A stretch of 64,000 nt of DNA from Myxococcales bacterium (GTDB lineage: Bacteria > Desulfobacterota > Binatia > HRBIN30). Position numbers and translations under genes: made by a program. The notes below the pieces were generated by a model. It did no database searches and was not told the origin of the DNA. It was given only the letters and a program-made list of their open reading frames with translations. Location: positions 165,124 through 229,123 of the forward strand of contig JBBILD010000005.1 of the NCBI GenBank assembly GCA_037445065.1, given 5' to 3'. Positions 39,050 to 48,528 of this stretch are shown piece by piece (positions within the stretch are counted from its first letter, which is position 1; every line of letters starts with the position of its first letter).

Positions 39050-39529
39050 ATGACGATGAAACGCGTGCTGGTACCGATCGATTTTTCCCGGGACTCCCTC
39101 GCGGCGCTCGACTATGCAGTGGAATTCACCAAGCCATTCGATGCCGAACTGCTGCTCTTGCACGTCATTGAGCCGGTGTATTACGCGACCCCAGCGGATT
39201 TGTACGCCACCAGCCCCAACCTGGCGCTGCTCCTCGAAGAACAACGCCGCTCCGCACACCAGCAACTGGAAAAGCTCGTGCGCAAGCTCACGCAGCGAGG
39301 CCGCAAGGCGCGCGCCCTTCTCAAACAGGGCACGCCCGCACAGGTGATCGCGGAATCGGCCGGCCAAACGCCGAAAGCGGATTTGATCATCATGGCGACA
39401 CACGGCAGAACGGGTCTCGCGCACATGCTGCTCGGCAGCGTCACGGAACGAGTGCTGCGCATTGCCAGCTGCCCAGTGCTCGTGGTCCGCGCACCCAAGC
39501 GACGCAGCGCCAAGGCGCGCCGCGCCTGA
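39050..39529 (+). CDS. Universal stress protein (UspA family)
   Basis: VLVPIDFS, DLIIMATHGRTG, LLGSVTERV, CPVLVV; GGAGGAGG RBS. Confidence 0.93.
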   Translation: MTMKRVLVPIDFSRDSLAALDYAVEFTKPFDAELLLLHVIEPVYYATPADLYATSPNLALLLEEQRRSAHQQLEKLVRKLTQRGRKARALLKQGTPAQVIAESAGQTPKADLIIMATHGRTGLAHMLLGSVTERVLRIASCPVLVVRAPKRRSAKARRA

Positions 39530-39761
39530 GCGGCCCTTCTGCCTCGCGCTCCCAGCACGGGCGCGTCCGCTCTCTCCCGCGCGCACCCTTCAGGGCCGCA
39601 CCCCGCCGGGCCAACAGGCCGCTCACACCGCCAACATTGGGATGAGCAGCCAACATCCCTGTTTCCTCTCGACGCCTCCGCCCAACCTGGTTTAAACAAC
39701 AGGCACTCACCGGTGGTCCGGTGATCGCCACCGGGGGGCGAAACAGAATGGATGGACGGTC

Positions 39762-40646
39762 ATGAACGCAGAGCAGCTACAACAAGCGATTCAGGTAGCG
39801 GTTGCGCGGCTCGAGGGCGAAAGCAAGCTGTGCCGGGCAGCGGTGCGTAGCCTCCGTCCCTTCTTGCGAGGCGGCGTGCTGGAAAGCCCGCCACGCTTGC
39901 GACGCGCGCTGCAAGGTCTCGCCAAACTCGGCGACGAGAATTTGCGCAAGCTGGAGCTAGCCTCCGTTCACGCCGCGCTCGAGCAGTGGAGCCAAGAGGC
40001 ACCGCAGCGGCTGCGTGCCGAGTTTGGTCGCCGCCTCAAAGACGCGTGCGCCCAGCGAGGGATTGCCTTCCGCGTCGTGCGGCACGAAGAGCCGTTGGAA
40101 GTGCGCATCCCACCCTTTTCGCTGCTGCTCGACTTCCAGCGCGGCCGCGCCACTTGGCAGTTTGCCCGCGAGCGCTTGCGCGAACTCGATCTCGACATTG
40201 CGCAGGTGTTCAAAGCCTACGACGCGTTGCGTAGCGAACTCGACTGGAAGGGGTTTTCGCCAGCGGATTTCCTTTCTCGCTGCTACCGGGCGTACTCCGA
40301 GGCCTTGTTCGCTCTCGGCAAGCAACGGGGGGAGCGGGTCGAGTTCGAGCACTTTCTCCCGCGGCTCGCGCTGCAGTTGCAACAGCGGAACTTCCTGCGC
40401 AACCCCCGGCAGAAGCTGTTCCGCGAATACTCGCGCGCGCACTTTGCGTACGACGTCTGGCGCCTGCAGCGCGCGGGCCAACTCTCGTACAACGGCTGGC
40501 GGCTCAACCTGGGGGTGGCCACCGGCGACAGCGCCCGGCAGCCGGAACGGGTGATTTACTTCGAAGACGGCGACGGCAACGGCGAGTACAAACTCACCGT
40601 CTTTTTTTCGCGCAGCGAAGTAGCAAGCACGGAGGTCAGCGCATGA
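39762..40646 (+). CDS. Uncharacterised 294-aa protein, first gene of the ATPase-ATPase-helicase module
   Basis: Helical N-terminus, alpha/beta C-terminus (YSRAHFAYDVWRL); no TM segment; ATGA overlap with the next gene. Confidence 0.85.
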   Translation: MNAEQLQQAIQVAVARLEGESKLCRAAVRSLRPFLRGGVLESPPRLRRALQGLAKLGDENLRKLELASVHAALEQWSQEAPQRLRAEFGRRLKDACAQRGIAFRVVRHEEPLEVRIPPFSLLLDFQRGRATWQFARERLRELDLDIAQVFKAYDALRSELDWKGFSPADFLSRCYRAYSEALFALGKQRGERVEFEHFLPRLALQLQQRNFLRNPRQKLFREYSRAHFAYDVWRLQRAGQLSYNGWRLNLGVATGDSARQPERVIYFEDGDGNGEYKLTVFFSRSEVASTEVSA

Positions 40647-41938
40647 ACAGGAACGGGCAAAATGGGCAGAGTGTGCAGATCCATCGCGAACTGGCGCAAC
40701 GGATCATCCATCGCATGGGCGAGACTGGGCAGCCCCCGGAGCGCGGTGCCTTGTACGTAAATGTCGGGACCGGGGATCTCTTGGAGACCCTGCGCGTGGA
40801 GTACCTGCGGCTCATTCGGGCAAGCGGCTTCAATTCGACCTTCAAGCTTGTCCAAGGACCGTTCGGGGCCGGCAAGTCTCACTTTTTATCCTGCTTCCGC
40901 GAAATCGCCTGGCAGGAAGGATTCGCCACCAGTTGGATCGGCGTGTCTCCGAAGGAGTGCCCGTTTTTCGAAATGGACAAGGTGTACCGCGAGGTGGCGC
41001 AGAAGATCGAGTTGCCGCCCGAAAACGAACTGGTGGAGCCCGACCGTGGGATCGACACGGTGCTGCGGCAGGTCGTGGAAAGGCGCCAGCAGGAGACCGA
41101 CCCTGAGGAGCTGCTCCACTGGTTGCGGAACGAATCTCTTCAAGCGCGTGTCGAAAGCCACGCTTGGCGCAAGGCCGCGTTCTTGTACATGGAGTGCCTG
41201 CTTCATCGCCGCTTCGAGCAAGCAGAACTGCTCGCACAGTGGTTGAGAGGCGACAAGGTCCCGCTGAGCGAGGTAGCGCGCTTCGGAGTGCGCGAAGAAC
41301 TCGATGAATCCACCGCTTTTCGCTGGTTGCGCAGCTTGGTCCAGTTTCTGCGGGTGGTGGATATCCCGGGTATCGTGTTGATGTTCGACGAGATGGACCG
41401 GGTGATGAGCGTGTCCCGGCGCCACCGAAAAGCCGTCGGTGACAACCTGCGCCAGCTCATTGACGCCTGCGGGCAAAGTACGCTGCCCGCTGCCGTGATG
41501 ATGTACGCTGCGCCCCCGGAATTCGTTGAACAAATTGTGCCCGAGTACCCGGCGCTCCAGCAACGCTTGAAAGTGACCGTGAAGTTTTCGGCCCATTTGC
41601 CTACGGCGCCGATCATTGACCTCGACCACTTGCCCTTGGAGCCGGTGGCGCTGTTCCGCGCCATCGGAGACCGGCTCATCGAGATTTACGCCGCTGCCTA
41701 CCCAGAAGCCGCGCTCGATCTCGCCTTGCAAAGAAAAAACATGGCTGCGCTCGCAACCCTCATGGGGCCGGAACAATTAGAAGCGAGCCATCGCCGCCTG
41801 TTCGTGCGCGCGGCTGTGTCCCTGCTCGTCGAGCAACACCACAACCGGCAACGGGAATTGGACGACGAGGAGCTGCGCACCCTGGCTGGATCCGCGCAAG
41901 CGGCGAGCCCGCGACTGGAGGGTGAGGAGGTCTTCTGA
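40643..41938 (+). CDS. BrxD/DUF2791-like P-loop ATPase (copy 1)
   Basis: N-terminal GQPP..G...VNVG, FKLVQGPFGAGKSHFL Walker A, VYREV, IVLMFDEMD Walker B, YPALQQRL. Confidence 0.8.
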   Translation: MNRNGQNGQSVQIHRELAQRIIHRMGETGQPPERGALYVNVGTGDLLETLRVEYLRLIRASGFNSTFKLVQGPFGAGKSHFLSCFREIAWQEGFATSWIGVSPKECPFFEMDKVYREVAQKIELPPENELVEPDRGIDTVLRQVVERRQQETDPEELLHWLRNESLQARVESHAWRKAAFLYMECLLHRRFEQAELLAQWLRGDKVPLSEVARFGVREELDESTAFRWLRSLVQFLRVVDIPGIVLMFDEMDRVMSVSRRHRKAVGDNLRQLIDACGQSTLPAAVMMYAAPPEFVEQIVPEYPALQQRLKVTVKFSAHLPTAPIIDLDHLPLEPVALFRAIGDRLIEIYAAAYPEAALDLALQRKNMAALATLMGPEQLEASHRRLFVRAAVSLLVEQHHNRQRELDDEELRTLAGSAQAASPRLEGEEVF

Positions 41939-43299
41939 TGCAACCGGGCGACGTAGTTGTGCACGCCCTCTACGGTCGTGGCACAGTGCAATGCCTGATT
42001 GCCGGTAGCCGCGCTAGCGTGCGCTTCGAACGGTTGCCTTCCCTGCCGCGCACGGTGCACCTCAACGAACTGAGCCTCGACGGACAATCACCGAAGCAGC
42101 GCAACGAGTCCATCGTTGCCCCTCCCGTTTCACCCGCCACCGCCACCCGCGAGATTCCCGTCGTCGGCCACGAAACTGGCGAGCTGCGTCAGCTCATCGA
42201 GGCCTTGCGCCTGGGCACGGTGCCGCCGTTTCGCCTGAAAGAGTACACGGTGGGGCGCGAAAAACCGTTCTGCCGCATTCAGGAACTCTTCCAACTCGCG
42301 CAAGGGATGGAACTGGTCTTCGGCGACTACGGAGCGGGCAAAACCCACTTTCTCGACCTGGTGGAGCAGGAAGCTCGGAACTCGAGCTATCTCACCAGCC
42401 GGGTGGTGCTCGACCCTCACGAAACGCCTCTCAGCCACCCGCAGCGTTTATGGCGAGCCATTGTCGCCTCGCTGCGCTACCCGGGGAACGAATCCCGACA
42501 AGGGGTCGTGCCCCTGTTCGTACGGCTGCAGTCGAGTTCCGAACACTTGTACCCCAGTGGCCGCCGCTTTCATCGCTTTCTCTCGCCGGCACTGTGGGCC
42601 TTTCGCTCCGGCTCTGCCGACGCCTGGGGTTGGTTTCAAGATTACATCGAGGGCTACCCCATGGACGTGGGCGCCCTGAACAGCGTACTCAGCTCGGTGG
42701 GATGGCCCGGCCCGCGCGCACTGGCACTCTCTGACTTCCGTACCTTCGGGCGCGTGTACGTGTACTTGGCCGGCGGGCTTGCCGCCTGGGCCGCTGATGC
42801 TGGTTTTCGGGGCGCGTGCCTGCTGTTCGACGAAGCCGAACAAATCGGTGGCTTCGACGCCACGCACCGCCAATTGGCAGAGGAGGTGATCCGCCACTAC
42901 GCGGCGGCAACGCTCCCCGAGGGCGACCTCCTGTTCGTTCCCGATGAGCTGTACCGCGGCGGGCGCCAGGTGCATCGAGAGTTGCCGCTGCGCTTCGACG
43001 AAGAGCAGCCGTTGGTCGTTTTGCTCGCTTTAACGCCCGAGCCGAGCATGCTGGAGTTGTGCGACCGTTTGGTGAGCGGGCACAAAATCGAACTCGCCCC
43101 ACTCGGAGCGCGGCATCTGAGCGAGCTGGTGGAGCGCGTGTGCGACTTGTACCTGCGCGCCTACCCCGGGGGCACTCTGCCCAAGAAGTGCCTCGCCCAC
43201 GCCCCTGCCTGGTACCAAACCCCGCGTGAACTGGTGCGCGAACTCATCGCCCGGCTCGACGCACATCGTTACGGGATATCCGCTGACTCCGCTTCATGA
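41938..43299 (+). CDS. BrxD/DUF2791-like P-loop ATPase (copy 2) with N-terminal Tudor-like domain
   Basis: IEALRLGTVP...VGRE, GDYGAGKTHFL Walker A, LLFDEAE Walker B, TPRELVR; N-terminus PGDVVVHALYGRGTV. Confidence 0.8.
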   Translation: MQPGDVVVHALYGRGTVQCLIAGSRASVRFERLPSLPRTVHLNELSLDGQSPKQRNESIVAPPVSPATATREIPVVGHETGELRQLIEALRLGTVPPFRLKEYTVGREKPFCRIQELFQLAQGMELVFGDYGAGKTHFLDLVEQEARNSSYLTSRVVLDPHETPLSHPQRLWRAIVASLRYPGNESRQGVVPLFVRLQSSSEHLYPSGRRFHRFLSPALWAFRSGSADAWGWFQDYIEGYPMDVGALNSVLSSVGWPGPRALALSDFRTFGRVYVYLAGGLAAWAADAGFRGACLLFDEAEQIGGFDATHRQLAEEVIRHYAAATLPEGDLLFVPDELYRGGRQVHRELPLRFDEEQPLVVLLALTPEPSMLELCDRLVSGHKIELAPLGARHLSELVERVCDLYLRAYPGGTLPKKCLAHAPAWYQTPRELVRELIARLDAHRYGISADSAS

Positions 43300-45323
43300 A
43301 CTCCGCGCGTAGCGAATTACCGCGTGCGTTTGCTGCCTTCTTTGGCCGCTTCGGGCGCCTAAAACCGGTTCAAGAGCGCGCCATCCCTTCCATCCTTGCG
43401 GGTGACGACGTGCTGATTGTCGCGCCCACGGCAACCGGCAAAACCGAGGCCTACGCGGCTCCACTTGCGGAACGCTACCTCGCCAGCCCCGCCCCCGCGG
43501 GTGCACCGCACGCGATCTTTGTGGCGCCCACCCGGGCGCTCACCAACGATCTCTTCCGTCGCCTCGCGCCCCCCTTCGAACACCTCGGGATCTCCTTCGG
43601 GCGGTACACCGGCGAGCACAGGGAGCGCGCTGAAGGCTCGCTCCCTGCGTTTGTCGTGACGACACCGGAGGCATTGGATGCCCTCCTGGCGCGCCGCGCG
43701 CAAACCTTGGCCGCCGTGCGCGCGGTGGTGGTGGATGAGCTGCATATCCTCGACAACACCCCACGCGGAGACCAGCTCCGCTTCCTCCTGCATCGCCTGA
43801 GCCAACTGGTTCGACTCCCGCTGCAGCGGCTTGCTGCAAGCGCCACCGTGAGCGAGCCGCAAGTGGTCGCGCAGCGCTACTTGGAAAGCCCGCAGGTCAT
43901 CGAAGAGCATAGCGGCCAGCGGATGGTACGCGCGCGCTGCTTTCCGGGGCGCGATCCGCATGATGTGGCTCAACACCTGAACGAGTTGGCGACTGCCGGT
44001 TTTCGCAAGATCCTGATCTTCGTGAACTCGCGCAAAGACGTCGAGCTGCTGGCGAGCTACCTCAACCAACACAGCCGCTTCCGCGACGCCGTGTTTCCCC
44101 ACCACGGCTCCCTCTCGCGCACCACTCGCCTGCGTACCGAGGAACGCTTTCAACAAGCCGGGGCGGCGGTCGCAGTGGCGACCCTCACTCTGGAGCTGGG
44201 CATTGACATCGGCACCGTAGACTACGTGCTCCTGTGCGGGGTCCCACCCAACATCTCGAGCCTCTTGCAGCGCATCGGACGGGGTAGCCGACGCAGTGGG
44301 CAGATCCGCGTTGGCTACGCCTGCGCGCATCGCGGAGAAGAGTTTCTCTACCGCTTCTTCTTGCAGAAAGGAGTGCGGGGAGAGCTGTACCCTCCTGCCT
44401 ACGCCTTGCGCACCAGCGTGCTTGTGCAGCAAGCACTCACCATTGCCGGCGCGGAACACTTCGTGACGGTGCCCCGCCTTCGCCAGATCCTCCCCCCCGC
44501 TCTGGCGCCCGCATTTCCTCCCGAGCGCTTGCGCAGGATCCTCGACTTCCTGGTGGAACACGAACTCCTCGAGCCGCCACGCCTGGGGCGGTACGTGCTC
44601 GGCCCGAAAGGAGAAAGCAGGTACGAGTACGGGCGGATTCATTCCAATATCGAGGACCCCGGCGGGGTCACGGTGGTGGATCGAATCAGCGGCGAGATCC
44701 TGGGCATGGTCGACTACCGGCACTTGGACGGCACCGAATTCAGTCTCGCCGGGCGAAGGCGCCGACCGTACGCCATCCAGGCAGATCGAATCCTTACCGA
44801 TCCAAAGGAGGCGTGTGCAGATACCGTCTTCCCCGTCGTCCAGGCTCCGCAAGTGAGCTTTTCTCTCGCTCGGGCCGTTGCGGCCGAGCTAGGAGCTGGG
44901 CCCAACGAGATGCTGGTGGCGCGCCGCGGTGATCACTGGCTCGTGTTGCACGGCCTGGGATCTTGCGAGGCGAAGCTGGTGTTTACCGGGCCGGAAGTGG
45001 CAGTCCGCTCCCCGTACCTGGTGGCTCTTGCCTCCCGCCCGCATGAGCCGCCGCGGCCTTCCGCACGCGAACTTGGCCAGCGAGTGAGCGAACAACTCGA
45101 GGAGTTGGAGAAAGCTCTGGCGATGGGTTGCTACCGCCGGTTCCTCCCCCAACAAGAACGGATTCAGGCCGTCGCCGAAGCCCTCGCCTTGGAGCAGCTG
45201 ACCGCCTTTTTGGAGGCAGCCCAACTTCGCATCGTGCCTGGCGAAGCGCCGAGCCTGTGGGCCAACCTGCTCCGCGTCCACGCAGAACTCCTGTCGAGCC
45301 AGCGCACGCACCTGCGGGTTTAG
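43296..45323 (+). CDS. Lhr/BrxHI-like SF2 DEAD/DEAH-box helicase (short form)
   Basis: Q motif LKPVQERAIP, APTATGKTE, APTRALTND, TTPEALD, VDELH, SAT, IFVNSR, HHGSLS, TLELGIDIG, QRIGRG. Confidence 0.88.
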   Translation: MNSARSELPRAFAAFFGRFGRLKPVQERAIPSILAGDDVLIVAPTATGKTEAYAAPLAERYLASPAPAGAPHAIFVAPTRALTNDLFRRLAPPFEHLGISFGRYTGEHRERAEGSLPAFVVTTPEALDALLARRAQTLAAVRAVVVDELHILDNTPRGDQLRFLLHRLSQLVRLPLQRLAASATVSEPQVVAQRYLESPQVIEEHSGQRMVRARCFPGRDPHDVAQHLNELATAGFRKILIFVNSRKDVELLASYLNQHSRFRDAVFPHHGSLSRTTRLRTEERFQQAGAAVAVATLTLELGIDIGTVDYVLLCGVPPNISSLLQRIGRGSRRSGQIRVGYACAHRGEEFLYRFFLQKGVRGELYPPAYALRTSVLVQQALTIAGAEHFVTVPRLRQILPPALAPAFPPERLRRILDFLVEHELLEPPRLGRYVLGPKGESRYEYGRIHSNIEDPGGVTVVDRISGEILGMVDYRHLDGTEFSLAGRRRRPYAIQADRILTDPKEACADTVFPVVQAPQVSFSLARAVAAELGAGPNEMLVARRGDHWLVLHGLGSCEAKLVFTGPEVAVRSPYLVALASRPHEPPRPSARELGQRVSEQLEELEKALAMGCYRRFLPQQERIQAVAEALALEQLTAFLEAAQLRIVPGEAPSLWANLLRVHAELLSSQRTHLRV

Positions 45324-45448: not shown

Positions 45449-45766
45449 TCACGTCGCTGTCTTGCGCTGGCGCAGGCGGCGCTTGACACTCGCGACTTTG
45501 CTCTTGAGCGTGACCTCTTTGTCGCGCCGATCGTCTATGGTCACCGTCGTCACCACCCGCTCCACCCCGCGCCGGAATGCCGCCTCGTGCATGCGTTGCG
45601 CCAGGGCAAAACCCTGCCTCAGCGGAGCCTCGAAAGAGGTGCCCATGGCGGAGAGTTCGTACGGCACACCCGCTTGCTCGAGGACCTGCACGGCGTCTGC
45701 GATGAAATCACCTATGCTTGGCCCGCTGGTACCAATTGGAATCACGCTCACCTGCACTAGAGCCAT
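45449..45766 (-). CDS. MTH1187/YkoF-like thiamine-binding protein (105 aa), probably with its own start
   Basis: MALVQVSVIPIGT.GPS...YELSAMGT.FE...RVVTTVTIDDRRDK...KVASV; strong AAGGAGG RBS before ATG 45766. Confidence 0.82.
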   Translation of the reverse strand: MALVQVSVIPIGTSGPSIGDFIADAVQVLEQAGVPYELSAMGTSFEAPLRQGFALAQRMHEAAFRRGVERVVTTVTIDDRRDKEVTLKSKVASVKRRLRQRKTAT

Positions 45767-47416
45767 TGCCGTCCCTCCTTCTCGTTTTCCTGCTCTCACG
45801 AAACTGGCAAAGGCGTCAACCGCCCGGCTCGCAGCATTTTTCCTGGTGCGCGCTCCGTCGCCGCGCCAACGCGGGATCTCGTAAATGCGGATGGTCGGGC
45901 CGGTGCGCCCCTGCCCCGGCACAAACTCCGCCGCCAGCGGCAGCGATTGGAACACGAACGTATAAAACGCAGCGACTTCCGCCTCCCCCGCGCGCGAGTG
46001 CCGAAAGCGCCCGTAAATGTTCGAACTCAGCACCAGGTAATCCACCTCGTTGCGCAGATACCAGCTATACGGGGCGGTGCCGGCCACTTGTACATACAGA
46101 ACGCGGTACTTCCGCCCGTCTACCTGGGGCGTGTACTCCTCCCGCGCAATCGTGGTGCCTGCTGGCACATTCGCCTCGATCCAGCGGTACGCCTCGGTGC
46201 GCGTATCCAGCGCGTGCCAGCGGTGGCGCAGTTGCCAAGCCGAGAGCGCCGGTTGCAAGAAAAGCAACGCGGCAGCGGCGGTTAACACGCCGCGGCGCGC
46301 CAGCGCTGGCAGTGTGGCTGCAAGAGCGGTGCGCAATGCGTCCCATCCGGCGGCCACGAACAGACACAGAAACGGGAGGACGGGAATCAAATTTCGATCG
46401 AAGCGTGCAGGCCAAGTGGAAAGGTAGGCCCAGTAGGCAACGGGCACCAAAAGCAGCACGCCGACCTCTCTTCGCGGCAGCGGCCGGCGTATCAACCACA
46501 CCGATGCCCCGCTGGCAGCAACGAGCAGCGGCAGCGCCCCGAATCCAAAACCCGCCAGAGCGAGCAGGTAGCGCCACCAATTCCCTACCGCGGGGCCACC
46601 GCTCGCATAATGCGCACGCTGCGCTTCGAGGTCGACGAGGAACTTGGAAACATCTAGCCACACAAACGGGCTCGCAACAAAGAAGGCTGCGGCGCAGCCG
46701 ACGGCCACCGCCCCCGCCGCCCGTGCCCCGCAGCGGAGCCAGGCAAGGCAAAGCGGCACGGTAACGACCATGCCGGCCGGGTACTTGGTTGCGGCAGCCA
46801 AACCCGCGGCTGCCCCCGCCAAGAGCCAGGTGCGAAGAGAGGCGGCCGGCAATGCCAGGCAAAGGGTAAGCGCCACCCACAACATGGCTGGCACGTCGGT
46901 CGTGAGGTAATGGCTGCTCTCGATGTGCAGGGGAGATAGAGCCAGCGCCGCTGCCGCCATCCACGCCGCCCACGGCGAGCACCACCGCCCTGCCAGCCGC
47001 GCGATCGCGTAGACTCCAGCAACCCCAAAGGCTGCCACCGCGGCGCGCCCGGCAAGCAGAAATGGAAACTGCTGCGGAGCCACATCCCACGGCCCCACCC
47101 CGTGCACCTCGGGTGCGGTGCGCAAGTCCGCCTGCACCCAGGGCTGCAGGATCGCCACCAAGAGCGCTTGCAGGTAGGGCAGAAACGATGGGTAGCGGAA
47201 CCAACGCGGGTTCGGGTCGCCGTCGCGAACCATGTTCAGCGCCGCATGCAACACGGCATGCTCATCCGGGTGGTAGGTAAACGGCTTGCCCCAACCGATC
47301 CCGTCGAAGCGCAGCCACGCCGCGAGCAGTAGCACGCTCGCAGTGGCAGCAAAGCGGTGCCTGGGTTGCCTGAACACCGGTGGGTCTTCGCCGCTTTGCC
47401 AGAGCGATCCGGGCAT
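45449..47416 (-). CDS. ArnT/PMT-like (GT-C fold, GT39-like) membrane glycosyltransferase, read in frame into a thiamine-binding-protein domain
   Basis: YHPDE, NPRWFRYPS, HIESSHY.TTDV, AAATKY, multiple TM helices; ATG 47416 overlaps the ald stop (TGATG). Confidence 0.8.
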   Translation of the reverse strand: MPGSLWQSGEDPPVFRQPRHRFAATASVLLLAAWLRFDGIGWGKPFTYHPDEHAVLHAALNMVRDGDPNPRWFRYPSFLPYLQALLVAILQPWVQADLRTAPEVHGVGPWDVAPQQFPFLLAGRAAVAAFGVAGVYAIARLAGRWCSPWAAWMAAAALALSPLHIESSHYLTTDVPAMLWVALTLCLALPAASLRTWLLAGAAAGLAAATKYPAGMVVTVPLCLAWLRCGARAAGAVAVGCAAAFFVASPFVWLDVSKFLVDLEAQRAHYASGGPAVGNWWRYLLALAGFGFGALPLLVAASGASVWLIRRPLPRREVGVLLLVPVAYWAYLSTWPARFDRNLIPVLPFLCLFVAAGWDALRTALAATLPALARRGVLTAAAALLFLQPALSAWQLRHRWHALDTRTEAYRWIEANVPAGTTIAREEYTPQVDGRKYRVLYVQVAGTAPYSWYLRNEVDYLVLSSNIYGRFRHSRAGEAEVAAFYTFVFQSLPLAAEFVPGQGRTGPTIRIYEIPRWRGDGARTRKNAASRAVDAFASFVRAGKREGGTAMALVQVSVIPIGTSGPSIGDFIADAVQVLEQAGVPYELSAMGTSFEAPLRQGFALAQRMHEAAFRRGVERVVTTVTIDDRRDKEVTLKSKVASVKRRLRQRKTAT

Positions 47417-48528
47417 CACTCGAGCAGGTCCTCGATCGGCACGGCACTCCGCTGAAACGCGGCAGCCACACGCGGATGGGTCACGCGCCCAGCGAACACG
47501 TTGACTCCGCGGCGCAGCGGCGCGTTGTCGCGCAGTGCACGCATGAGACCCGAATCCGCAATTTCCAGCACGTAGGCGAAGGTGGCATTGGTGAGGGCAA
47601 AGGTGGAAGTGCGCGGAACCACAGCCGGCATGTTGGTCACGCAATAGTGGACCACTCCCTCCTCCACGTAGATCGGCTCGTCCAGCGTGGTCGGGCGGGA
47701 GGTTTCCACGCAGCCACCCTGGTCAATCGAGACGTCCACGATCACCGCTCCGCGGCGCATCCGGCGCACCGTACGGCGGCTCACCAAGCGCGGGGCGCGC
47801 GCCCCGGCCACCAGCACCGCACCGATGACCAAATCCGCCGAGCGCACTTCTTCCTCGATATTGGCGCGGTTCGACATCACGGTCGTAATGTGGCCTCCCA
47901 GGATGTCGTGCAGGTAGCGCAATTTCGCTGGATTCGAGTCTACGACGCTCACGTGCGCACCGAGCCCAAAAGCGATTTGCGTTGCGTTGCTGCCTGCGGT
48001 GCCTGCACCCAGCACCACCACCTTGCCGGGACGCACGCCGGAGGCCCCACTCAGCAAAATGCCGCTGCCGCCGGTTTGTTTTTGCAGGCACCAAGCTCCC
48101 ACCTGTACGGCGAGCCTCCCGGCCACTTCGCTCATCGGCGCGAGCAATGGAAGCGAGCCGTCGTCCAGCTCCACCGTCTCATAACCAATGGCGCACACGC
48201 TGCGCTGCTTAAGGACCCGCAAGAGTTCCTCGTTGGTCGCCAAATGCAGGTAGGTGAACAGCACGAGCCCGGGTCGCAAGTAACGGTACTCCGAGGGAAG
48301 GGGTTCCTTCACTTTGACCACCAGTTCCGACTGCCGCCACACCTCGCGTGCGCTCACGAGTTCGGCCCCAGCCTCGGCGTACTCGCCATCTTCGAGCCCA
48401 CCGCCCTTCCCAGCGCCGCGCTCCACCAGAACCTGGTGGCCGTGTGCCACCAGCACGTTGGCACCCGCAGGCGTGAGGGCCACTCGGTTCTCCTCTGCTT
48501 TGATTTCTTTCGGAACCCCGATGATCAT
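47416..48528 (-). CDS. ald: Alanine dehydrogenase
   Basis: IGVPKEIK.EENRVALTP, VKVKEP, FTYLHLA, LAPMSEVAGR, DVSIDQGGC, HYCVTNMP. Confidence 0.96.
   Translation of the reverse strand: MIIGVPKEIKAEENRVALTPAGANVLVAHGHQVLVERGAGKGGGLEDGEYAEAGAELVSAREVWRQSELVVKVKEPLPSEYRYLRPGLVLFTYLHLATNEELLRVLKQRSVCAIGYETVELDDGSLPLLAPMSEVAGRLAVQVGAWCLQKQTGGSGILLSGASGVRPGKVVVLGAGTAGSNATQIAFGLGAHVSVVDSNPAKLRYLHDILGGHITTVMSNRANIEEEVRSADLVIGAVLVAGARAPRLVSRRTVRRMRRGAVIVDVSIDQGGCVETSRPTTLDEPIYVEEGVVHYCVTNMPAVVPRTSTFALTNATFAYVLEIADSGLMRALRDNAPLRRGVNVFAGRVTHPRVAAAFQRSAVPIEDLLE

Follow-up and report, generated by a model that had tools for sequence, protein, structure and literature searches.

The window analysed here, a stretch of 64,000 nucleotides from Myxococcales bacterium (GTDB lineage Desulfobacterota, Binatia, HRBIN30; contig JBBILD010000005.1), carries a four-gene operon, A to D, whose products may form a machine that loads a helicase onto DNA. 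Our preferred reading, which we hold at a probability of about 45%, is that the four proteins assemble into such a machine and that in this lineage it serves the upkeep of host DNA rather than the killing of phages. The original prediction, made from the sequence alone, had taken the operon for a relative of the BrxD-helicase dyad of the BREX and Shango systems, one that stands alone, is uncatalogued and has a doubled ATPase, and this description held. Also borne out by reading of the sequence were the four same-strand open reading frames (ORFs), overlapping at ATGA 40643, TGATG 41936-41940 and ATGA 43296; the intact Walker A and B motifs of both ATPases (B, GPFGAGKS 72-79 and FDE 248-250; C, GDYGAGKT 129-136 and FDE 297-299); and helicase motifs Q to VI in D (Q26, motif I 43-50, DELH 147-150, SAT 182-184, QRIGRGSR 325-332). 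The features on which the argument rests are:

39762..40646, + strand: gene A (P0001), 294 amino acids (aa)
40242..40625, + strand: predicted winged-helix domain of gene A, folded alone with a predicted local distance difference test score (pLDDT) of 93
40643..41938, + strand: gene B (P0002), 431 aa
41564-41566, + strand: arginine finger R308 of gene B, in an L-x-x-R setting, present in 100% of 129 rows
41938..43299, + strand: gene C (P0003), 453 aa
41938..42081, + strand: UvrD/PcrA-type Tudor domain, residues 1-48 of C, by profile against PDB and Pfam
43296..45323, + strand: gene D (P0004), 675 aa
44676..44702, + strand: helicase hairpin VDRISGEIL, residues 461-469 of D, resembling the PcrA/UvrD helicase interaction motif

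The A-B-C-D arrangement recurs far beyond chance. Gene A has 451 representatives at E<=0.001 and 50% clustering; B lies directly behind it in all 36 GTDB loci retrieved via gene A, with C and D next wherever the contig continues (C of L026 being recognised by profile only), and the intergenic gaps are mostly -4 to +3. To these were added 32 metagenome loci (a second clade), 2 plasmid loci and 98 stretches from genome searches. Once duplicates are removed, 115 loci reach 5 kb or more downstream of A; in these the order is A-B-C-D in 88, A-B-C in 18 and A alone in 9, so that the predicted four-gene synteny is conserved. Across 89 complete loci the four proteins show correlated pairwise identities (Spearman 0.87-0.93), which argues that they travel as a unit; no recurrent fifth gene was seen among the first 36 loci, save in near-relatives with common flanks.

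Gene A matches no family in Pfam, NCBIfam or PADLOC, and its nearest named relative, from a Candidatus Binatia genome, is 55% identical. Its AlphaFold2 model is confident (pLDDT 96.6) and comprises an N-terminal helical bundle (residues ~1-80), an alpha+beta domain (82-161) and a C-terminal predicted winged helix (161-288). The middle domain resembles Med17, the MotA C-terminal domain and alpha+beta folds like those of type III secretion system chaperones (Z 6.4-9.1), a likeness from which we draw no function. The C-terminal domain is likely to be a winged helix, to judge from the models: within full-length A it aligns to the ORC1 winged helix of human, yeast and fly (Z 4.5-6.1), and when it is folded alone winged helices, by title, make up most of the top 50 VIA-align rows. 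CDC6/ORC1 heads these rows (Z 5.7, root-mean-square deviation (rmsd) 4.0, 81 aligned; Z 5.6, rmsd 3.5, 82 aligned), and ORC1/Cdc6 rows rank first at Z 5.0-5.7 and rmsd 3.5-4.0, yet tied with other winged helices. Foldseek returned nothing better than E 0.44 for the isolated domain and no match at E<=0.001 for the gene A structures; profiles A2, A3 and A7 gave coiled-coil noise or nothing against PDB, and an Atlas search yielded unnamed clusters only. On the winged-helix helices, the positions of basic residues R225, R234, R237 and R247 hold K or R in 70-99%. A is likely, on this modelled fold, to be a DNA-recognition or adaptor subunit. The new effector proposed for this position found no support in this lineage: A matched no nuclease or toxin fold in the fold searches, and no effector domain was found. 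Nor does A show similarity to SngA or TerB_C, at an hhalign probability of 0.3-0.5% against single sequences only.

Gene A also occurs in other settings. In two proteins of 729-733 aa (P0093 and P0139) the gene A homolog forms the C-terminal part, behind some 450 residues that look GlmM-like by eye; this fusion was seen twice. Solo copies stand at L151, L157, L159 and L162. Of 11 genomes that have a solo A, 8 also hold B, and in G370, G551 and G376 no B ortholog was found; solo A may act alone or be a remnant.

Both B and C score above the gathering cut-off of PF10923 (22.2 bits), B at 134.6 bits (5.9e-39) and C at 69.4 bits (3.6e-19); neither reaches the 350-bit cut-off of the NCBIfam BrxD model NF033438 (B 111, C 60). 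Their designation as BrxD/DUF2791-like ATPases is therefore sound as to family and Walker motifs, while by that cut-off they are not BrxD orthologs. The PADLOC SngB matches of the two ATPases stand at 8.1e-17 and 2.1e-6. To each other they are very distant paralogs (BLAST, 31% identity over 59 aa; hhalign, 99.2% probability at 17% identity). B is conserved across phyla at ~50% identity, and alongside the invariant R308 it has R385 in 97% of the same 129 rows; one row of the B counts and B trees, L048, is a neighbouring BREX BrxD and not the module's B. The L-x-x-R motif is also present in 8 of 9 BrxD/SngB controls, the ninth segment having been mis-picked. C keeps its Walker motifs and a sensor-II arginine (R430) and is without a conserved arginine finger, columns 368-387 holding at most 29/120 Arg each. 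An AAA+ subunit with an ATP site but no finger can receive, not donate, a finger; the presence of a finger in B and the want of a conserved one in C thus imply a directional or capped hetero-oligomer. In a quick maximum-likelihood tree a single branch (support 93) separates all 23 C rows from the rest; most B proteins cluster away from BrxD/SngB (supports 92-93, unstarred), which group with some basal B rows.

C starts with a 48-residue beta domain followed by a variable Pro/Ala-rich linker. On profile evidence this domain is homologous to the C-terminal Tudor domain of UvrD/PcrA: profile A6 matches the UvrD C-terminal domain in PDB entry 7egt at E 7.7e-6 (profile positions 1-32), then 7egs (1.7e-4), 6yi2 (2.4e-4) and PcrA 5dma (0.051), and at E<=0.1 PF21196 is found in 14/26 members (best 2.6e-4) and PF02559 in 11/26. 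The window's own copy gives sub-cut-off matches only; the profile also finds the end of a UvrD-like ORF of the same genome (E 0.0022). According to the available part of PMC5397179, the PcrA Tudor makes contacts through H681, W684, K712 and L714, and its binding to RNA polymerase depends on H681, K712 and L714; its ligand in RpoB and UvrB is a hairpin with the motif [VIL]-D-x-x-T-G-E-[VIL]-[VILT] (PMC8318588, available part). In a by-eye alignment H9, F30, R/K38 and position 40 of our domain correspond to PcrA H681, F705, K712 and L714. H9 is present in 92/92 Tudor rows and F30 in 90/92; residue 38 is non-basic in 50/92. Within the window's clade these figures are 38/38 for H9, 36/38 for F30, 32/38 for R/K38 and 38/38 for a hydrophobic residue at 40.

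D is a superfamily 2 (SF2) DExH helicase related to BrxHI, SngC and Lhr (PADLOC BrxHI 1.2e-73, SngC 1.2e-66). It falls below the cut-offs of canonical Lhr (PRK13767/TIGR04121; 153-170 bits against ~850), and DEAD_assoc (PF08494), a feature of canonical Lhr, had no match in G000. Its residues 461-469 form a candidate docking hairpin. A loose version of the motif is present in 25/28 close orthologs and in 8/20059 six-frame ORFs of the window's own genome; DxxT/SG stands at the hairpin site in 77/86 helicases of the Tudor-bearing lineage, and in 0/4 basal Tudor-less modules, 0/8 BREX/Shango helicases and 0/10 canonical Lhr proteins (12 Lhr loci were fetched, of which 2 gave no usable frame). The window's clade has D or E at helicase position 467 in 33/36. 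That the hairpin might be ancestral Lhr sequence is unsupported, given its absence from all ten Lhr controls. One clade (L083, L084, L143-L161, L190 and L192) has a short D of ~520-545 aa in which the last domain is gone and the barrel hairpin mostly kept. In two basal modules (L172 7431-11999 and L173 6392-12001) the helicase is longer, with 1523 aa and at least 1870 aa respectively, and the second includes an added superfamily 1 (AAA_11/AAA_12) domain.

Put together, these parts suggest the following sequence of events. BrxD is described, in the available part of PMC12839542, as an ORC-Cdc6 AAA+ ATPase without DNA-binding domains, proposed to load BrxHI; A would supply the missing domain in trans, its predicted winged helix marking a DNA structure such as a stalled fork, flap or R-loop. 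B and C would form an asymmetric hetero-oligomer in which the B finger completes an ATP site, directional or capped by analogy with ORC. The Tudor of C, on its linker of 30-90 residues, would then catch a DxxTG(E/D) hairpin, either on D or on the beta subunit of RNA polymerase, and so bring the helicase to its substrate; this step we propose tentatively, at slightly less than even odds. D would finally unwind 3'-5' from the loaded site, as knowledge of the Lhr/Ski2 family leads one to expect. Any cutting would be left to host enzymes, since no nuclease, toxin or methylase is encoded. A still broader view, which we regard as rather doubtful, is that the module is an unrecognised bacterial loader of the ORC/Cdc6 kind (a winged-helix subunit, an AAA+ heteromer and a Tudor tether docking an Lhr/Ski2-like helicase or RNA polymerase), domesticated from a BREX/Shango motor into genome maintenance: fork restart, R-loop removal or transcription-coupled repair.

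The neighbourhood of the module bears on whether it serves defence or upkeep. Within 5 kb of the loci a simple codon model predicted 241 genes, of which 12 near-duplicates were dropped and 229, from 47 Tudor-lineage loci, were scanned; 96 unassigned or defence-looking flank proteins, one of them from the window, were run through PADLOC. The expected enrichment in defence islands was not supported: a defence or toxin-antitoxin gene lies within 5 kb in only 6-8 of the 47 loci, six of them clear (YhcG/PDC-S02; an HEC-01A fragment; HigBA; AbiEi/AbiEii; Fic; HmaA with HEC-07) and two with generic defence matches. PglZ, TerB, PglX/BrxX, BrxC, Cas genes, integrase and transposase are absent from the 229 flank genes, the rest of which are mostly metabolic. 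At the window locus itself Pfam and PADLOC show no TerB, PglZ or methyltransferase partner, as had been claimed, nor PglX/BrxX or BrxC in the flanks. Repair genes stand beside single loci (Mfd at L035, RecG at L083, RuvX with DUF123 at L197, an AlkB-like gene at L009, an Ogt/ATL-like gene at L074); such neighbours may be chance. Upstream of the module at L008 (4828-9140) there is a tandem array of five short paralogous ORFs that belong to no known family.

In 29 genomes parts are missing next to A. A D ortholog (329-545 bits) was found elsewhere in 12 of these, at least 2 via contig breaks; of the other 17, G403 has a second, complete module and 16 have only paralogs or nothing. The single-contig genome G681 places A at 1.411 Mb, B and C at 1.513 Mb and D at 1.189 Mb, that is, 100-320 kb apart among housekeeping genes, D lying between a family-B DNA polymerase and DUF123. 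Genes that are scattered among housekeeping genes and nevertheless all kept are unlike a mobile defence cassette, and of the two functions originally offered, defence or nucleic-acid processing, the latter fits slightly better. In the window's own phylum, L190 (7569-9977, - strand) has a family-B DNA polymerase directly upstream of a dispersed D, then DUF123. A supposed clade having lost both Tudor and helicase was discarded, the helicase sitting elsewhere in those genomes.

Distribution is patchy, as foreseen, and shaped by horizontal transfer. Gene A occurs in 81/301 Myxococcota genomes, nearly always once, in 18/301 Planctomycetota genomes (with the narrower profile A7) and in 14/251 genomes of the window's own phylum. 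In a FastTree of B the window pairs with G026 within a starred 42-row clade that is mostly Planctomycetota, with Myxococcota and Gemmatimonadota interspersed, which indicates repeated horizontal transfer. Single-sequence and pattern searches, which remote forms escape, turned up no gene A in plasmids, phages or viral contigs; distant copies of the module do exist on plasmids. The cassette itself resembles its host: module GC is 61-65% and GC at third codon positions 76-78%, matching the neighbouring housekeeping genes, and no repeats bracket it. It lies between two genes outside the module:

39050..39529, + strand: usp (PF00582), left flank of the insertion site
45449..45766, - strand: frame of the thiamine-binding-protein family (PF01910), right flank

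In 3 genomes of the same family, all without the module, usp directly adjoins the thiamine-binding gene; in G026 module and usp are on different contigs. The convergent glycosyltransferase reported as the right-hand neighbour is present, with the amendment that its 3' end is the PF01910 frame, read in frame with it: a PMT-family glycosyltransferase and the PF01910 domain form a single open frame of 731 aa (45449-47644, - strand). Three relatives have the thiamine-binding domain as a separate frame of 108-119 aa, which makes the window's frame a fusion or the result of a lost stop. No sigma-70 promoter or terminator was predicted within 39400-39800; an imperfect inverted repeat at 39527-39625, with 22-nt arms 73% complementary, begins at the stop codon of usp, ahead of gene A, and is possibly a terminator-like hairpin, possibly chance.

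A number of results weigh against a host-maintenance loader. Z scores of 5-6 lie in the common-fold range, so that the link of gene A to ORC is a best match only. The window's hairpin has S for T, and the strict motif is present in only 5/28 close orthologs; the hairpin represents one single evolutionary gain, and it is kept in 11/12 helicases without a called Tudor, one of which (L049) has one. No D ortholog was found in 7 Tudor-bearing A-B-C metagenome-assembled genomes (G471, G489, G453, G409, G360, G456 and G601): Tudor and helicase do not strictly co-occur. A compensatory charge swap between Tudor R38 and helicase 467, apparent in raw counts (32/35 vs 8/39), was rejected on the tree (sign test, p 0.25-0.5), as was replacement of Lhr by the module, canonical Lhr being present in 15/35 genomes with it and 16/35 without. 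Upstream regions share no motif: 35 of them hold no common palindrome, and no LexA-like box is shared, L034 alone matching one of six LexA-type boxes. Of 40 relatives, one has a strong and one a weak true match to gene A, five further low scores being coiled-coil noise, and the usp/thiamine-binding adjacency in module-less relatives suggests that the cassette fills an empty site, which may instead reflect loss of the module in that genus. To our knowledge, all systems with this ATPase-helicase pairing that have been tested by experiment act in defence.

Such patchiness, the filled site and distant relatives beside defence genes make defence a close rival, and one that we consider quite possible: the same loader would act against phages or plasmids as Shango does, A recognising the invader, B and C loading D, and replication being disrupted. 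The best PADLOC matches of B and D are BrxD/SngB and BrxHI/SngC; Shango, with a similar dyad, protects 10-100-fold, with no nuclease described in the available part of bioRxiv 2022.11.11.516204; and Binatia, Myxococcota and Gemmatimonadota copies of B nest among those of Planctomycetota. The basal Tudor-less modules lie on plasmids with AbiEi/AbiEii and integrase, behind pglZ-brxD-brxHI, or by an SNF2-Mrr nuclease or a C5 methylase (L082, L086). What speaks for host upkeep instead is the Tudor lineage itself, with its few defence neighbours and none with PglZ or TerB, its dispersed but retained genes in several lineages, its proteins well conserved across phyla and its lack of any effector domain found. 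The simplest reading of both sets of observations would be a defence-associated origin followed by extensive domestication of the Tudor-bearing lineage, the window's copy included.

Two other explanations were weighed. The Tudor of C might bind RNA polymerase beta or UvrB in place of D, the module then clearing R-loops or stalled complexes in a transcription-coupled manner; this variant overlaps our preferred explanation and we think it unlikely in its own right. The window's genome has a 1397-aa ORF, taken as RpoB from its size and motif, with the strict sequence VDPVTGEVI, which makes RNA polymerase a real alternative partner. Consistent with this are the precedent of PcrA, the retention in the window's clade of the Tudor positions that match PcrA H681, F705, K712 and L714, and the persistence of the Tudor in genomes where no D was found; on the other side, D has a matching hairpin of its own, gained in the Tudor lineage, and the Tudor's residue 38 is so often non-basic though the RpoB glutamate is reported to be invariant. 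That the operon is what is left of type 2/6 BREX or of Shango, in decayed or accessory form, is very improbable and already largely refuted. Its ATPase and helicase families are those of the two systems, and in one distant instance the module directly follows a BREX locus: on the Aulosira plasmid L048 (2031-11031), pglZ-brxD-brxHI is succeeded by all four genes of a Tudor-less module, which places two related dyads one after the other. But the frames are intact and coupled, with order conserved in 88 loci; the quick tree gives C a clade to itself and places most B proteins apart from BrxD/SngB; and A is without similarity to SngA/TerB_C. The adjacent pglZ or pglX that a BREX remnant would normally show is absent from 47 related loci, the Aulosira BREX genes being separate and complete.

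In neither BREX nor Shango is it settled what the BrxD-helicase pair does. A stand-alone version free of methylase, PglZ and TerB exposes the parts that a loader would need: a winged helix to bind DNA, ATP sites that are unequal, and a tether bearing a candidate docking motif. Each of these can be probed with a single mutation. Were the module to protect against phages, it would be a widespread uncatalogued defence family, gene A occurring in roughly one in four of the Myxococcota genomes sampled; were it to maintain the host genome, it would show a defence motor recruited for housekeeping and would give bacteria a counterpart of ORC-type helicase loading.

No published description of the operon was found in a search to which subscription papers were external, and the supplements of PMC12839542 may list such neighbourhoods. 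On sequence comparison it is neither Shango nor BREX. With type 2 (Pgl) and type 6 BREX it has in common a Ski2/Lhr-like helicase preceded directly by a DUF2791 ATPase of the ORC/Cdc6 class, an arrangement for which helicase loading has been proposed (PMC12839542, available part); BrxD is unmentioned in the available part of bioRxiv 2025.09.30.679545. Unlike BREX, it has two ATPases, one without a conserved finger, a Tudor on the second and a winged-helix gene of its own, it lacks PglW, BrxC, PglX and PglZ, and its hairpin is found in 0/6 BREX helicases. Shango consists of a TerB-like protein, an ATPase and a helicase (available parts of bioRxiv 2022.11.11.516204 and 2022.05.11.491447) and is likewise a stand-alone operon ending in a DUF2791 ATPase and a DExH helicase, with neither system offering a described nuclease. 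The module differs in its first gene, A having 294 aa, no TerB_N, TerB or TerB_C (all of which the control SngA proteins match) and no profile similarity to SngA; in its doubled ATPases, which occupy tree branches apart from SngB; and in not being enriched in defence islands in the Tudor lineage. MANTIS/Gao_RL is also BREX-related and has an AAA+ ATPase that loads its partner onto DNA, but it is methylation-based and employs a methyltransferase and a helicase-nuclease (bioRxiv 10.64898/2026.09.23.753747, available part), neither of which the module has.

Beyond defence systems, PcrA/UvrD offers a homologous Tudor on a flexible linker and a DxxTG(E/D) hairpin on a candidate partner. The polarity is reversed in the module, with the Tudor on the ATPase and the motif on the helicase, and the acidic residue of the motif is more often D than E and is lost in other clades. 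ORC/Cdc6 complexes offer an analogy: AAA+ subunits that differ from one another and carry winged-helix domains assemble into a hetero-oligomer and load a helicase. In the module the predicted winged helix is on a separate protein, the client would be an SF2 helicase rather than the MCM ring, and the structural similarity is modest.

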